This document shows positions 3,110 through 20,295 of a stretch of 64,000 nucleotides of DNA, piece by piece; positions within the stretch are counted from its first letter, which is position 1; each line of letters begins with the position of its first letter. A model generated the notes under the pieces. It did no database searches and was not told the DNA's origin. It was given only the letters and a program-made list of their open reading frames with translations. The stretch comes from Candidatus Komeilibacteria bacterium RIFOXYD1_FULL_37_29. GTDB taxonomy: Bacteria; Patescibacteriota; Patescibacteriia; UBA1558; GWA2-36-10. Location of the stretch: positions 16,120 to 80,119 of the forward strand of contig MHKS01000002.1 of assembly GCA_001818495.1 (NCBI GenBank), read 5' to 3'. The translations under genes and the position numbers were made by a program.

Positions 3110-4198
3110 ATGGCTATCAGTTATCTAAAAAATTGGGAAGAGTTTCGTGATCAGGAGTTAATCAAGGCTACTTTGCTTTTGGAGCAGTTGGGATTTTCTT
3201 TGGATACAAAACAGGTGCATATTAGTGGAGAAAGGTATTTGACTGGCAACCGCAAGTTAGTTTTATTGGGTTTTAGAAATAGCGACCAAAAACCAGTGGT
3301 GATGAAAGTTTCTAGCGATCCAGCTATAATTTCTGAGATAGAAGATGAGCGGCGGTCCCGCAATATTTTAAAAGAAATTAATTTTGCTTATCATATTTTT
3401 TCTTTTCCACCAGAGATTTTATATACTCACAAACAGGGTTGTGTTATTTTTATTACCGAGTTTATTGAGCAGGAAATGACTTTTTTAGAGCGTCCATTGG
3501 CCGAGCAGTTTTTTATAGCTCTAAAGGCTTTTGAAGCTCAAGAGGCTATTCACGCTACCACTTATGAGCATGCTAATATTATTAAAAAAGTCTTTGGTAT
3601 TTTTACGGCGCAGATTTATTTGGAAAAAATTAAAGAGTATTCTCGTGATATTGAAATAGTTTTTCAAGATGATAAAAATTTGAAAGGGGTTTTAGACAGA
3701 GCTCATGAGTTTATTGCCAATAATCTAGAAACCATAGATATTTATTCCAATTTTTTGACGCATTGGGACTTTGTGCCCCATAATTTTAGAGTATGGGGTA
3801 GTGAAATATATTTATTGGATCATGCCGCTTTGCGTTTTGGTAATAAATATGAAAGCTGGGCCAGGTTTATCAATTTTATGACTTTATACAATGAAAAGTT
3901 GGAGCAGGCCTTACTGAGCTATGTAAAAAATAATCGTGATCAATCAGAATATTTGTCTCTTAGATTAATGAGGGTTTTTCGTTTAGTCGAAATTATTTGG
4001 TATTATACTAACACTTTAGTCAAGGCTGTGGGCGATTTACACACTTTAAATCAGAAAAGAATTATTTTTTGGACTAAAGTATTGGAGTCTGTTTTAGCCG
4101 ATCAGCCGGTAAGTAGAAATATTGTGGAAGAATATAAACGTATTAGAGACAATCTGCGTAGTCCAGAAGAAAAAGAGCGTCAAAAGAAATTGCATTAA
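3110..4198 (+). CDS. Kinase-like phosphotransferase (APH/choline-kinase fold) protein
   Basis: 362 aa; VVMKV (beta3 Lys), HWDFVPHNF (HxDxxxxN catalytic loop), LLDHAALRFGNKYESWARF (DFG-like segment); embedded between glycosyltransferases. Confidence 0.4.
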   Translation: MAISYLKNWEEFRDQELIKATLLLEQLGFSLDTKQVHISGERYLTGNRKLVLLGFRNSDQKPVVMKVSSDPAIISEIEDERRSRNILKEINFAYHIFSFPPEILYTHKQGCVIFITEFIEQEMTFLERPLAEQFFIALKAFEAQEAIHATTYEHANIIKKVFGIFTAQIYLEKIKEYSRDIEIVFQDDKNLKGVLDRAHEFIANNLETIDIYSNFLTHWDFVPHNFRVWGSEIYLLDHAALRFGNKYESWARFINFMTLYNEKLEQALLSYVKNNRDQSEYLSLRLMRVFRLVEIIWYYTNTLVKAVGDLHTLNQKRIIFWTKVLESVLADQPVSRNIVEEYKRIRDNLRSPEEKERQKKLH

Positions 4199-12743: not shown

Positions 12744-13112
12744 ACCAGCGCTGTAAAAAGCTTAATAAATCAACAATACATTTAATGATAGTTAGTCTAA
12801 AAATAAATAAAACTTAAAAGGATTTTGGGTAGAATTTATTTTTACGTGAAATCCCGCCTGACGGGATTTTTGAGACCTTAAAAAAATAATCGCTAGCAAG
12901 TAGTTTTTTAAATAGGTAGGCTTACGCGACTTTTTTAAAAAACTACTTATTACCGATTAAAAGGTAAAGAACTTTGAAAAGTGAATACAATACAAATCAT
13001 AAATATAATAAACAATGTTTATGAGCATCTTTAGATAAAAAATATCTCGTATAGATATAAACGAAAATTATATCCAAAATTAAATCCATTAAAAGTTTTC
13101 AGAATTTTTGAT

Positions 13113-16215
<3,103 letters not shown>

Positions 16216-16470
16216 ATTAAAAATTTTGGAAGTTTTTTCACTCTACTTTACAAGAAGTAATGAGTGGATCCCGCTTCGGCGGGAAGTGGAGCTTTATACG
16301 TGATATTTTATAAGCTCATGAACATTGATAAACACACCGGAATGATCAAAATAATTTTGATCTTCCTGATGCTAATTGTATTCTTAGGGGTAGTATTTTT
16401 TCTAACCCCGTTAAAACAAATAGTATAAAAAACGATATTTTGGTAAGAAATTAGGTTAAGAAGAAGGTAT

Positions 16471-16590
16471 TACTCTCGTGGCACTAGCGAGTTGGCAACA
16501 CCTGATCCCATTTCGAACTCAGTAGTTAAGCGACTCAGCGCCGATGGTAATAGCTTATCATGGCTGTGAGAGTAGGTCGTCGCGAGAGTT
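16471..16590 (+). rRNA. rrf: 5S ribosomal RNA
   Basis: CCTGATCCCATTTCGAACTCAGTAGTTAAG...CAGCGCCGATGGTA...TGTGAGAGTAGG conserved 5S core; helix 1 ctctcg/cgagag. Confidence 0.85.
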
Positions 16591-17699: not shown

Positions 17700-18191
17700 A
17701 TGTCAGAAGAAATTATTATTGTCGATAAAAATGACGAAGTGATCGGTTATAAGCTTCGTCAGAACATAAAGCCCAGCGATATTTATCGTGTCTCTGCTCT
17801 TTGGCTAACCAATTCTCGTGGGGATATTTTATTGGCTCAGCGGGCCTTTGATAAAAAACAGCATCCCGGTAAGTGGGGTCCAGCTGTAGCGGGCACTTTA
17901 GAGAAAGGTGAGACCTACGACAGCAACATTTTAAAGGAATGTGCTGAAGAATTAGGACTTATAAATTTTAGTTTTGTTAAAGGCCCTAAAACATTTTACA
18001 ATAGTGACTATATACATTTTACTCAATGGTATATTGCTATTCTGGATAAAAAAATTAAAGATTTTGATATTCAACCAGAGGAAGTGGTTAAAATCAGGTG
18101 GTTTTCTAAAAGTGATTTAGAAGACCAAGTTAAAAACAATCCAGAAAATTGTTTACCAAATTTACCAAGTTATTTTAAATTATTATCATGA
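17700..18191 (+). CDS. NUDIX hydrolase
   Basis: 163 aa; GKWGPAVAGTLEKGETYDSNILKECAEELGL Nudix box. Confidence 0.8.
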   Translation: MSEEIIIVDKNDEVIGYKLRQNIKPSDIYRVSALWLTNSRGDILLAQRAFDKKQHPGKWGPAVAGTLEKGETYDSNILKECAEELGLINFSFVKGPKTFYNSDYIHFTQWYIAILDKKIKDFDIQPEEVVKIRWFSKSDLEDQVKNNPENCLPNLPSYFKLLS

Positions 18192-19453
18192 GACAGATCA
18201 TAGATTTACATATTCATAGCAAATATGCTCGTGCCACTTCTAAATTTTTTGATTTAGCAGAAATGGTCAAATGGTCAGAAATAAAAGGAGTAGATATTAT
18301 CTCCTGCGCTGATTTTACTCATCCAGCTTGGTTTGCCCAGCTAGAAAAAAATTTAATAGAGGACAATAGTAGCGGACTATATAGATTAAAAGACAGCAAT
18401 TCGGCTGTTAGGTTTATTATTTCTACCGAAGTTTCTTGTATTTATCGCCAAGGTGACAAAACTAGACGCTTGCATCTTTGTATTTTAATGCCAAATTTAA
18501 CATCCGCTGGAAAATTTAATCAGGCTCTAGCAGCACGTGGTGCTAAATTGGCTTCCGATGGCCGACCGATATTGGGGATGAGTGCCAAAGAAGTGTTACA
18601 GATTATGTTAGAAACTGACAAGCGGGCGATGATGATCCCAGCGCACGTCTGGACACCGTGGTTTGCAGTTTTTGGATCTAAATCTGGTTTTGAATCTTTG
18701 GAAGAATGTTTTGAAGAATTAACGCCGCATATTAAAGCGATTGAAACCGGTTTATCATCTGATCCGCTGATGAATTGGCGCTTAAAAGAGTTAGATAATA
18801 TCACTTTAGTTTCCAACTCGGATGCTCATAGCGGACCGCAGATTGGTCGAGAGGCCAATGTCATGGATTTATCGGAGAAAACTTATCAGGAAATTGTGGA
18901 TATTATAGCCACAAAAAATAGAACAAAATTTTTGTACACTATTGAGTTTTACCCCGAAGAAGGTATGTATCATGCCGATGGCCATAAAGACTGCGGATTT
19001 TCTTGTCTGCCAGAGGCTAGTCAGAAACTCAAAGGCCTATGTCCAAAATGCAAAAAGCCTTTAACTATTGGAGTCTTGGCGCAGGTAGAAAAATTAGCCA
19101 CCTTAAAAGATAATGAGGTAGACAAAAATCAGCATATTCCTTATAAGAGCATTGTACCCTTGCCTAGTATAATTTCCGATTATTTGGGGGTGGGTAGAAA
19201 TTCCCAGCGGGTACAAAAATTATTTTTAGATATTATAGTTAGCGCTGGTAATGAATTTAAAGTTTTACTTGATTTATCAGCCGAGGAGCTCATAAAAATT
19301 ATGCCAGCTGTTTTAGCAGATGGTATTATCAGAATGCGTCAGAATAAAATAAAATTAATTCCTGGCTATGATGGCCAGTACGGTCAGGTGGAAATATTTT
19401 CTAAAAAAGAGCGTCAGGTAGCCAGGGACAATCAGCAGACTAAATTGTTTTAG
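18188..19453 (+). CDS. Endonuclease Q family protein (PHP domain + zinc ribbon)
   Basis: 421 aa; DLHIHSKYARATS, NSDAHSGPQIGREANV, C..C...CPKCKKPL zinc finger, LIPGYDGQYGQVEIF; these resemble the EndoQ family as recalled from Pyrococcus EndoQ. Confidence 0.7.
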   Translation: MRQIIDLHIHSKYARATSKFFDLAEMVKWSEIKGVDIISCADFTHPAWFAQLEKNLIEDNSSGLYRLKDSNSAVRFIISTEVSCIYRQGDKTRRLHLCILMPNLTSAGKFNQALAARGAKLASDGRPILGMSAKEVLQIMLETDKRAMMIPAHVWTPWFAVFGSKSGFESLEECFEELTPHIKAIETGLSSDPLMNWRLKELDNITLVSNSDAHSGPQIGREANVMDLSEKTYQEIVDIIATKNRTKFLYTIEFYPEEGMYHADGHKDCGFSCLPEASQKLKGLCPKCKKPLTIGVLAQVEKLATLKDNEVDKNQHIPYKSIVPLPSIISDYLGVGRNSQRVQKLFLDIIVSAGNEFKVLLDLSAEELIKIMPAVLADGIIRMRQNKIKLIPGYDGQYGQVEIFSKKERQVARDNQQTKLF

Positions 19454-19567: not shown

Positions 19568-19696
19568 TTATCTTTTCTTTCTGCGAGCAACTTTTCTCTT
19601 CTTAGAAGTTTTTTTAGCTACTCTCTTTTTAGCAACTTTTCTCTTCTTAGAAGTTTTTTTAGCTACTCTCTTTTTAGCAACTTTTTTCTTTTTCAC
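19568..19696 (-). CDS. Lys/Arg-rich 42-aa micro-protein (VKKKKVAKKRVAKKTSKKRKVAKKRVAKKTSKKRKVARRKKR), putative nucleic-acid-binding
   Basis: strong SD AGGAGGT 7 nt upstream of GTG; perfect 45-bp tandem duplication encodes a repeated 15-aa unit; the + strand ORF 19455-19721 is its antisense artefact. Confidence 0.45.
   Translation of the reverse strand: MKKKKVAKKRVAKKTSKKRKVAKKRVAKKTSKKRKVARRKKR
19591..19680. repeat. Perfect 45-bp direct tandem repeat x2 inside the K-rich micro-ORF
   Basis: cttttctcttcttagaagtttttttagctactctctttttagcaa repeated back-to-back (19591-19635, 19636-19680). Confidence 0.9.
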
Positions 19697-19762
19697 GTGT
19701 CCCACCTCCTTTCTTTTGTAAAGATTTTGTGTCAATTAATTGACTTTTATTTTTATTATTTT

Positions 19763-20023
19763 TTAGCTAATTTTAGCCCCAAAAATGCTGGTAGCGATCC
19801 ATTTGGCAAAAGCCTCACCTAGATTGGTCGCTTGCAAAAAACCACCAAAGATAATCACAATACCTATTAGCTTGTACATCAATCTAGTACCTCCCTCTGA
19901 ACCGAGATGTCTATCGGCCCAATCAATCCGGCCTAAATTATTTAACAGCCAATCGGCTTTCCAAACAATAACAAAACCAATTGCTGCTATAAGTAGTCCA
20001 CCAAAAAAATTTCCAAAGCTCAT
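19763..20023 (-). CDS. Small membrane protein, hypothetical
   Basis: 86 aa, two predicted TM helices; own extended -10 (TGgTATAAT at 20054-20062, minus strand); no SD (near-leaderless). Confidence 0.4.
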   Translation of the reverse strand: MSFGNFFGGLLIAAIGFVIVWKADWLLNNLGRIDWADRHLGSEGGTRLMYKLIGIVIIFGGFLQATNLGEAFAKWIATSIFGAKIS

Positions 20024-20120
20024 AAAAACAAATTAAGATTTATAACAACTTTTATTATACCATAATTTACCAATCGTGAGAATAGTTTTGGCGTAAAATT
20101 TTATATTTTTTTAAAATTAG

Positions 20121-20175: not shown

Positions 20176-20295
20176 TCAAGCGGCTTTGGCCTTGATGGTT
20201 TTTATTTTTTTGCCACAACTTGGGCAAGCGCCGTGTAGTTTGACAAACCAACGGTAAATTTTCTGTAAGCAGTGAGGACAAGATAGGGTTTTCAT
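20176..20295 (-). CDS. 38-aa zinc-ribbon micro-protein (MKTLSCPHCLQKIYRWFVKLHGACPSCGKKIKTIKAKAA)
   Basis: SD aaaggag 7 nt before ATG; two CPxC pairs 17 residues apart; the only ORF between the SAM-I riboswitch and the next terminator. Confidence 0.55.
   Translation of the reverse strand: MKTLSCPHCLQKIYRWFVKLHGACPSCGKKIKTIKAKAA

Follow-up and report, generated by a model that had tools for sequence, protein, structure and literature searches.

Does a short, lysine-rich open reading frame (ORF) built on a perfect tandem repeat encode a protein, and if so, what might such a protein do? The question is raised by a locus of Candidatus Komeilibacteria bacterium RIFOXYD1_FULL_37_29 (assembly GCA_001818495.1, contig MHKS01000002.1), of which we analysed a stretch of 64,000 nucleotides (nt), referred to throughout as the window. 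The minus strand of the window carries a 42-codon micro-ORF that converges on a gene of the endonuclease Q (EndoQ) family. We establish here the anatomy, conservation and coding signature of this micro-ORF, its repeat polymorphism and its linkage to endoQ, and we propose, with about even confidence, that it gives rise to a translated, free-standing polycationic microprotein found across Patescibacteria, which would bind nucleic acid, most likely chromosomal DNA, in the manner of a histone H1 tail.

The micro-ORF and its 45-bp repeat

As claimed by the first-pass annotation of this DNA, a GTG-initiated ORF is present on the minus strand at 19696..19568 (GTG 19696-19694, TAA 19570-19568), preceded at a spacing of 7 nt by the Shine-Dalgarno (SD) sequence AGGAGGT (19710-19704). 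Its product of 42 amino acids (aa), VKKKKVAKKRVAKKTSKKRKVAKKRVAKKTSKKRKVARRKKR, has a mass of 5.0 kDa, a computed isoelectric point of ~12 and a charge of +26.5 at pH 7; Lys and Arg (K+R) account for 64% of the residues, and acidic residues, aromatic residues and Leu are absent. No other SD-preceded ORF in the 64-kb window reaches a K+R content of 55%. The identical back-to-back 45-bp repeats that had been placed at 19591-19680 were recovered inside a perfect period-45 tandem block of 2.2 copies (minus strand, 19586-19685; s[i]=s[i+45] over a run of 55 nt), which is far beyond chance, and Tandem Repeats Finder reported a period of 45 with 2.3 copies and 98% matches (score 203, 19586-19690). 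At the protein level, the 15-aa unit consists of three XXKKK-type pentamers, VAKKR-VAKKT-SKKRK. Identical loci are present in two further metagenome-assembled genomes (MAGs) from Rifle groundwater, GCA_001818445.1 and GCA_001818865.1.

Conservation and coding signature

A homologue search with the 42-aa protein gave no candidate, and phmmer returned 0 matches to it among 1.84 billion representatives. Exact look-ups found none of 10 family members in the cluster collection and nothing on record for contigs encoding the 42-mer with a Met start, while sequence searches of the PDB (E <= 10) gave 0 matches for either the 42-aa protein or a family member of 103 aa, and Pfam and NCBIfam at E <= 0.1 offered no family for the micro-ORF protein. 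Because homology searches fail on a protein of such low complexity, orthologues were sought through its neighbours, that is, by collecting loci around homologues of EndoQ and of the 86-aa protein with two transmembrane segments (2-TM protein) encoded directly upstream.

The family obtained in this way comprises 37 distinct members in Patescibacteria, from 14 to 121 aa in length. Species whose 2-TM protein is 68-77% identical to that of the window share its layout and carry micro-ORFs of 39, 47, 55, 103 and 121 aa, and the micro-ORF also occurs in more distant Patescibacteria (2-TM identity 44-61%). The common layout runs from a GTCAA...TTGAC palindrome (degraded in locus L015) through GGAGGTG, a GTG or ATG start and a Lys-rich frame to a C-terminus of the form ...RRKK(K/R) and a terminator, with GGAGGTG or GGGGGTG as the SD at matching spacing in nearly all members. 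Among the ~1,600 residues of the family, Lys contributes 52%, Ala 14%, Arg 12%, Val 10%, Thr 7% and Pro 4%, and Asp, Glu, Phe, Trp, Tyr, Cys, His, Leu and Asn do not occur once.

Several properties of these loci point to translation. The 1388 family codons contain no in-frame stop, whereas the two remaining sense frames hold 93 and 113. Despite codon changes among CGC/CGT and AGA/AGG, which are synonymous only on the micro-ORF strand, the Arg-Arg at the C-terminus persists, and K+R stays between 0.52 and 0.73 over loci ranging in guanine-plus-cytosine content (GC) from 24 to 57%, even as the AAG share of Lys codons shifts from 0.2 to 0.8 and AGR codons give way to CGN. A strict scan for SD-preceded ORFs with K+R of at least 55% detected 25 of them in the 283 kb downstream of the 2-TM gene on the same strand and none in the remaining 898 kb of those loci. 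The conserved SD and start, the synonymous turnover of Arg codons and a constant K+R across this range of GC suggest that selection acts on the protein. The micro-ORF had been put forward as genuinely coding, and its orthologues bear this out by retaining SD, start, frame and terminator; by its sequence signature it is a real, conserved and mostly unannotated coding gene of Patescibacteria, which NCBI annotation often omits. The family table also indicates that the micro-ORF is shorter at higher locus GC (19-30 aa at GC >= 0.46, up to 121 aa at ~0.32-0.35), a trend that phylogeny alone may explain.

The opposite view, that no functional protein is made and the frame is either a Lys/Arg-codon attenuator leader or a non-coding purine-rich repeat open by chance, is in our opinion very improbable. 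Amino-acid attenuator leaders are likewise small, rich in one class of codon and followed by a terminator, and the absence of the ORF from many NCBI records would fit such a view, as would the antisense frames of the family, which are nearly stop-free too. This latter openness, however, is a trivial effect of Lys codons: reversed, they never yield stops, and the 88-aa ORF on the plus strand of the window is therefore an antisense shadow. It had been set aside as an artefact from the beginning, rightly so, given that the variation in the Arg-Arg codons is synonymous in no frame but that of the minus strand. An attenuator leader was excluded because no co-oriented gene follows the micro-ORF; the next gene is convergent in the window (endoQ) and in all ~39 loci examined. 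Lengths of up to 121 aa also misfit a leader, and the conserved SD and start, the synonymous Arg turnover and the steady K+R content all speak for a protein.

Variation in repeat number

The perfect repeat had been taken by the first-pass annotation as the mark of a recent duplication, with the expectation that unit number would differ between related genomes. For the species of the window we inspected 15 loci, which lie on roughly a dozen different contigs. Two units, encoding 42 aa, are present in 10 of the 15, and a single unit, encoding 27 aa, in three, which lie on two contigs (L001/L174 and L178) with otherwise identical flanks, originating from two samples and assembled at k = 141 and k = 127. 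The duplication is recent, as one- and two-unit alleles lie within a single species in contigs that do not differ otherwise. A second species shows the same behaviour, as loci L183 and L184 encode identical EndoQ proteins next to micro-ORFs of 50 and 35 aa, respectively, and the micro-ORFs of L019 and L100 differ in length by 6 aa. The other two of the 15 loci, on independent scaffolds of the window's species (L181 and L182; ANAN16), stop exactly inside the 45-bp repeat; the repeat breaks assemblies.

The higher-order repeat is not the same everywhere: it measures 45 nt in the window, 27 nt in L009, L007 and L107, and 99 nt in L015 (2.0 copies, 97%), and a 15-nt period underlies the higher-order repeats of every member tested. 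With higher-order repeats being lineage-specific, expansions and contractions must have occurred repeatedly and independently.

Linkage to endonuclease Q

The convergent neighbour of the micro-ORF is a plus-strand gene at 18188..19453 encoding a 421-aa protein of the endonuclease Q family. Residues 6-404 match PDB chain 5zb8_A (E 3.2e-46), and 7k30_A is matched at E 1.5e-45; the score against TIGR00375, 155 bits, is under the equivalog cut-off of 326.6 bits. In public records its relatives are entered as 'endonuclease Q family protein', and several carry the name 'DNA helicase UvrD', which looks like a misannotation. The Patescibacteria homologues listed are 56-81% identical to it.

To quantify the linkage, 144 distinct 2-TM loci were tabulated, 34 with a convergent endoQ downstream and 110 without endoQ. 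A micro-ORF lies beside the convergent endoQ in 32 of the 34 (28 scored by script and four outside its length limits: L016 and L098 with 121 aa, L038 and L117 with 14-15 aa). The two exceptions are L018 and L046, whose genes abut. Among the 110 loci without endoQ the count is 0-1, the possible exception being L124, whose contig ends just past the ORF. When loci were picked solely by EndoQ homology (56-68% identity), the micro-ORF was found in 5/5, including two (L185 and L190) with other upstream genes and no 2-TM gene. The distance from the micro-ORF stop to the 3' end of endoQ is 54-200 bp. In some loci the 2-TM gene is separated from the micro-ORF by inserted tRNAs, a DedA-like gene, LysE or NUDIX, whereas no insertion was ever seen between the micro-ORF and endoQ in the loci tabulated. 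The micro-ORF thus tracks endoQ and not the 2-TM gene. The 2-TM gene, our first hypothesis for a functional partner, was displaced by this table, as most 2-TM loci have no micro-ORF.

Such a pattern invites the explanation that the microprotein is an accessory of EndoQ, which it would recruit, stimulate or restrain, or that the two genes regulate each other through convergent transcription. The tail-to-tail arrangement in 32/34 and 5/5 loci, the placement of all insertions on the far side of the micro-ORF, and a bidirectional terminator apparently common to both genes favour it. Even so we consider it improbable. Convergent genes are not co-transcribed, and the known EndoQ partners are sliding clamps and not basic peptides (PMC4858679). 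Moreover, many lineages share the whole block rplS - tRNAs - 2-TM - micro-ORF - endoQ - NUDIX in synteny, and the linkage may therefore be inherited and not selected. As the loci are phylogenetically related, and hence not independent samples, and the larger block is often syntenic, inherited synteny is a sufficient explanation of the linkage.

Proposed function and alternatives

In the family the autocorrelation of non-basic residues peaks at a lag of 5-6. The window protein consists of repeat sequence over its whole length and has no globular H1 or Hc1 domain; Pfam gave no match to linker histone H1/H5 (PF00538) or Hc1 (PF07432) even at E <= 10, and KPAA repeats and an N-terminal folded domain of the AlgP/PhaF type are absent from it. 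HC2 (PF07382) was the only Pfam model reported for it (9.4 bits, E 1.4, cut-off 40) and scored highest among the models reported for its relatives. The best HC2 score in the family came from L039 (68 aa; 25.9 bits, E 1.2e-5), two 103-aa members had no HC2 match, and one 68-aa relative showed two further, weaker Pfam matches at chance level. Because the scores are always below the Pfam gathering threshold, membership in HC2 is not claimed. Traits of the HC2 type that the family does display are a lysine-rich pentamer periodicity with higher-order repeats and in-frame repeat-number polymorphism within species. The likeness to H1/Hc-type proteins suggested in the first-pass annotation accordingly holds for composition, pentamer periodicity and repeat polymorphism, while its other suggestion, a ribosome-associated tail, is disfavoured by the length range of 14-121 aa. 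A single-sequence AlphaFold2 (AF2) model of the micro-ORF protein is one long helix with a predicted local distance difference test (pLDDT) score of 94; we take this as helical propensity only, because a +26 peptide would not be stable as a free helix.

By analogy, the microprotein is most likely a DNA-coating polycation like the tail of histone H1. DNA appears to be the likeliest target because of the parallel with Hc2, BpH1 and H1 tails and because the neighbouring gene belongs to DNA repair. According to this proposal, in the lineage of the window a conserved promoter of the extended -10 type would drive the 2-TM gene and the micro-ORF as one transcript, ending at a terminator shared with the convergent endoQ, and the micro-ORF would be translated from its near-perfect SD. 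The resulting unfolded or helix-prone polycation would bind nucleic acid electrostatically and non-specifically, and binding would lead to charge neutralisation and DNA compaction, as with the H1 C-terminal tail, Hc2, BpH1 and the tails of MDP1 and HupS. Units would be gained or lost in frame through slippage in replication or through unequal recombination at the perfect repeats of the DNA, so that the length and charge of the microprotein vary within populations and between lineages; repeat slippage may thereby tune its charge. A more far-reaching version holds that in these ultra-small cells a length-tunable polycation is the main neutraliser of nucleoid charge and condenser of DNA, a surrogate for protamine or polyamines, coupled to EndoQ by, for example, gating access to compacted DNA, with repeat slippage as a population-level compaction dial. 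We find this version distinctly unlikely.

Binding to rRNA or mRNA in place of DNA deserves the most serious attention among the alternatives, although we judge it unlikely. The microprotein would then serve as a chaperone of RNA or as a factor of the ribosome-associated or hibernation type, or it would stand in for tails that ribosomal proteins have lost. Hc2 itself not only condenses DNA but also binds RNA, with an affinity above that of Hc1, and represses translation (PMC2848022). The surroundings in the window are rich in translation genes (rplS, tRNAs, 23S-5S rRNA), the very strong SD and the promoter suggest high expression, and a leader hairpin, present in many members, could allow autoregulation in the style of ribosomal proteins. 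On the other hand, a range of 14-121 aa and 15-aa indels within populations misfit a fixed site on the ribosome, no ribosomal protein, including the small basic bL34, bL36, bS21, bS22 and bTHX, was matched in Pfam, NCBIfam or PDB chains, and the conserved neighbour is a DNA-repair gene and not a ribosomal one.

It is also conceivable, but quite improbable and in our estimate a little more so than an EndoQ accessory, that the microprotein has no specific nucleic-acid role and is a general counter-ion for polyanions, either as a polyamine substitute or as a binder of polyphosphate (polyP) like the AlgP tail. The H1-like KPAA tail of AlgP has been found with polyP granules, and KPAA-repeat tails of this kind also bind DNA (PMC9239181). 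The family is almost pure charge, has a conserved motif only at its termini, and varies freely in length down to members of 14-15 aa. However, the neighbourhood showed no genes for polyP or polyamines, and the conserved pentamer spacing suggests more than bulk charge.

Finally, the peptide might be exported as a cationic antimicrobial or host-acting agent of an episymbiont, with the 2-TM protein as exporter or immunity factor; we give this only an outside chance. Polycationic peptides can be membrane-active or cell-penetrating, and in this lineage the micro-ORF probably forms an operon with a gene for a small membrane protein. The window protein, though, has no signal or leader peptide and no hydrophobic N-terminus, its mean hydrophobicity is -0.93, and its helical hydrophobic moment of 0.26 is reached by 15% of shuffles. 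An amphipathic antimicrobial peptide was rejected on these grounds, the protein being very hydrophilic, with a moment no higher than that of shuffles, and unlike magainin, melittin or LL-37. In addition, 109 loci have the 2-TM gene but no micro-ORF, and L185 and L190 have the micro-ORF without the 2-TM gene.

Several points weigh against the proposal of an H1-tail-like DNA binder. We infer the nucleic-acid partner from composition alone, and the similarity to Hc2 is itself compositional and below the Pfam threshold (9.4 and at best 25.9 vs 40 bits). Members of 14-15 aa would be weak DNA condensers. Convergence with endoQ does not imply co-expression, and the linkage may be mere conserved synteny in streamlined genomes. 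As the family escapes sequence searches, the loci sampled reflect the neighbour-gene route by which they were collected. Collapse during assembly could in principle account for the one-unit alleles, but their origin from two samples assembled at two settings of k (127 and 141), both longer than the 90-bp repeat, speaks against it.

Nucleoid organisation in the Candidate Phyla Radiation (CPR)/Patescibacteria is essentially unstudied: our literature searches turned up no work on the nucleoid-associated proteins of these bacteria or on H1-like ones, and searches on CPR ribosome, nucleoid-associated protein or small-protein work found nothing relevant. Being invisible to homology tools and often skipped by gene callers, a conserved and probably highly expressed cell component has likely been overlooked. 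If DNA binding proves true, this would be the smallest free-standing H1-tail-like protein family described, and it would provide a natural length series for testing how charge and length control compaction. The conserved tail-to-tail position relative to endoQ offers a concrete link between chromatin state and the repair of deaminated bases to be tested, and whatever the function, an in-frame repeat polymorphism has been documented in an uncultured lineage.

Promoters, spacer palindrome and terminator

The spacer of 66 nt between the 2-TM gene and the micro-ORF contains the perfect 14-bp palindrome GTCAATTAATTGAC, overlapped by a minus-strand TTGACA at 19735-19730. The first-pass annotation was correct about the perfect palindrome and its overlap with TTGACA but misplaced it within 19716-19740; it lies at 19731-19744. 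With 7 perfect 14-bp palindromes in the window compared with 6.4 +/- 2.5 expected from Markov-1 simulations, the palindrome alone is unremarkable, whereas the probability of one falling within this particular spacer is 0.002. The Komeilibacteria-like clade keeps it as GTCAA-N4/5-TTGAC (L009, L107, L007 and L016) with one compensatory change from T:A to A:T, but it is broken in the close relative L015 and in L097. In the covariation analysis 97% of cells were paired and one pair was changed on both sides, a result reached by 85/500 shuffles and hence not significant. In other lineages this position, bounded by the SD on one side and the promoter or upstream gene on the other, is taken by unrelated inverted repeats. 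Across the family, the 65 nt that precede the SD are on average more stably folded than dinucleotide shuffles (mean z -1.4; z < -2 in 12/32), and the spacer of the window folds at -4.3 kcal/mol (z = -2.1).

The role of an operator, which had been assigned to the palindrome, is not supported by these data, since palindromes of this kind are usual for the window, only one compensatory pair was observed, the element is broken in L015, and unrelated hairpins take its place elsewhere. A sigma-70 promoter formed by the palindrome and TTGACA was likewise rejected, there being no -10 partner at 16-18 nt. An intercistronic or leader hairpin is more likely than an operator, and the palindrome is probably such an RNA stem-loop, serving stability, processing or possibly autoregulation.

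Upstream of the 2-TM gene there is a promoter-like site on the minus strand (20054..20090), which reads TTCTCA-17 nt-TGGTATAAT (an extended -10) and includes the motif AAAACTATTCTC. Nine lineages have AAAACTATTCTC, followed after ~17 nt by TG(G/T/C)TATAAT, upstream of the 2-TM gene, the arrangement being shared with the window by L007, L009, L015, L016, L019, L024, L033 and L039; it may mark a conserved promoter or the site of a regulator. Micro-ORFs that are separated from the 2-TM gene have their own TGnTATAAT promoter. No SD was seen before the ATG of the 2-TM gene.

Past the 3' end of the micro-ORF, an intrinsic terminator (AAAATCCCTTTAT...ATAAGGGGATTTTTTATTTTT) lies on the minus strand at 19522-19479. 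Because an A-tract and a T-tract flank its stem, it is probably bidirectional and shared with endoQ. An equivalent intrinsic terminator follows nearly all of 31 family members checked.

Neighbouring genes and other features

The gene of the 86-aa 2-TM protein (20023..19763, minus strand) lies directly upstream of the micro-ORF in the same orientation and is likely the first gene of its operon in this lineage. The protein belongs to no Pfam or NCBIfam family. Its AF2 model is a helical hairpin (pLDDT 88), for which Foldseek found nothing below E = 1.6 in the PDB. Its sequence includes a loop that is invariant, ...WAExHLGSEGGTRLMYKLIG..., and the protein occurs widely across Patescibacteria (127 genome matches and 325 metagenome matches).

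Also on the minus strand, within 20557-20130, lies an S-adenosylmethionine (SAM)-I riboswitch (RF00162, 51.3 bits) that has a terminator-like platform. Behind it come an SD and a micro-ORF for a zinc ribbon of 39 aa (20295..20176, CPHC...CPSC), and then a strong terminator (20159-20130). The same pair occurs in L007 at 3450-3802, where the riboswitch scores 55.1 bits and the ORF encodes 35 aa (CPHC...CALC); L009 and L010 have a TauE gene at that position, with no riboswitch reported. A SAM riboswitch governing only a tiny zinc-ribbon protein is unusual. The neighbourhood also includes rplS, tRNAs and 23S and 5S rRNA. The 23S rRNA match (13112-16588, plus strand), with 5S downstream, spans 3107 nt compared with the 2925 positions of the model, so that the rRNA probably carries insertions, and the rRNA operon is apparently unlinked because no small-subunit rRNA match was found in the window. 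Many MAGs titled 'uncultured Gammaproteobacteria' (binchicken, SRP co-assemblies; L017-L019, L024, L031-L035 and others) carry the Patescibacteria-type block, and their labels are probably wrong.

Comparison with known systems

Protamines and the ribosomal proteins eL41, bTHX and bS22 are comparably small and contain more than 55-60% basic residues. The former differ in being Arg-rich and eukaryotic, and the ribosomal microproteins are of fixed length and sequence, whereas the length of the micro-ORF family varies ~9-fold.

The closest parallels are lysine-rich pentamer proteins whose size is set by repeat number, namely Chlamydia Hc2 (HctB) and Bordetella BpH1, both binders of DNA and RNA (PMC2848022). 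Like the micro-ORF family, Hc2 is composed of lysine-rich pentamers in higher-order repeats, and in-frame gain or loss of these gives rise to size variants within species (PMC2848022). It is nevertheless a larger protein (165-237 aa with 36-aa elements vs 14-121 aa), differs in phylum and gene context, endoQ being the neighbour here, and has Ala where the micro-ORF family has Val and Thr for much of it; and while DNA and RNA binding by Hc2 has been demonstrated, the micro-ORF family is known here through its sequences. BpH1 and the Hc2-like proteins of Burkholderia and Ralstonia also have consecutive lysine-rich pentamers, size variation between strains and no globular domain (PMC2848022), but they are proteobacterial, measure 149-231 aa, have no reported endoQ linkage and show no detectable homology to the microprotein.

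The C-terminal tail of H1 and the tails of AlgP/PhaF, MDP1 and HupS resemble the microprotein in being rich in Lys, Ala, Pro, Val and Thr and free of acidic residues, and they are described as disordered or helical on binding and as binding and compacting DNA electrostatically (PMC9239181; PMC10810275, PMC11229371). AAPKK and PAKK motifs are present in members of the family. These tails are attached to folded domains (a winged helix, an HU fold or the AlgP N-terminal domain), whereas the micro-ORF protein is a tail only and is devoid of KPAA tetramers. Cumulatively, the microprotein is of a known kind, that of the bacterial H1-tail-like repeat proteins, and what is new is its existence as a free-standing family in Patescibacteria, its linkage to endoQ and its invisibility to annotation.

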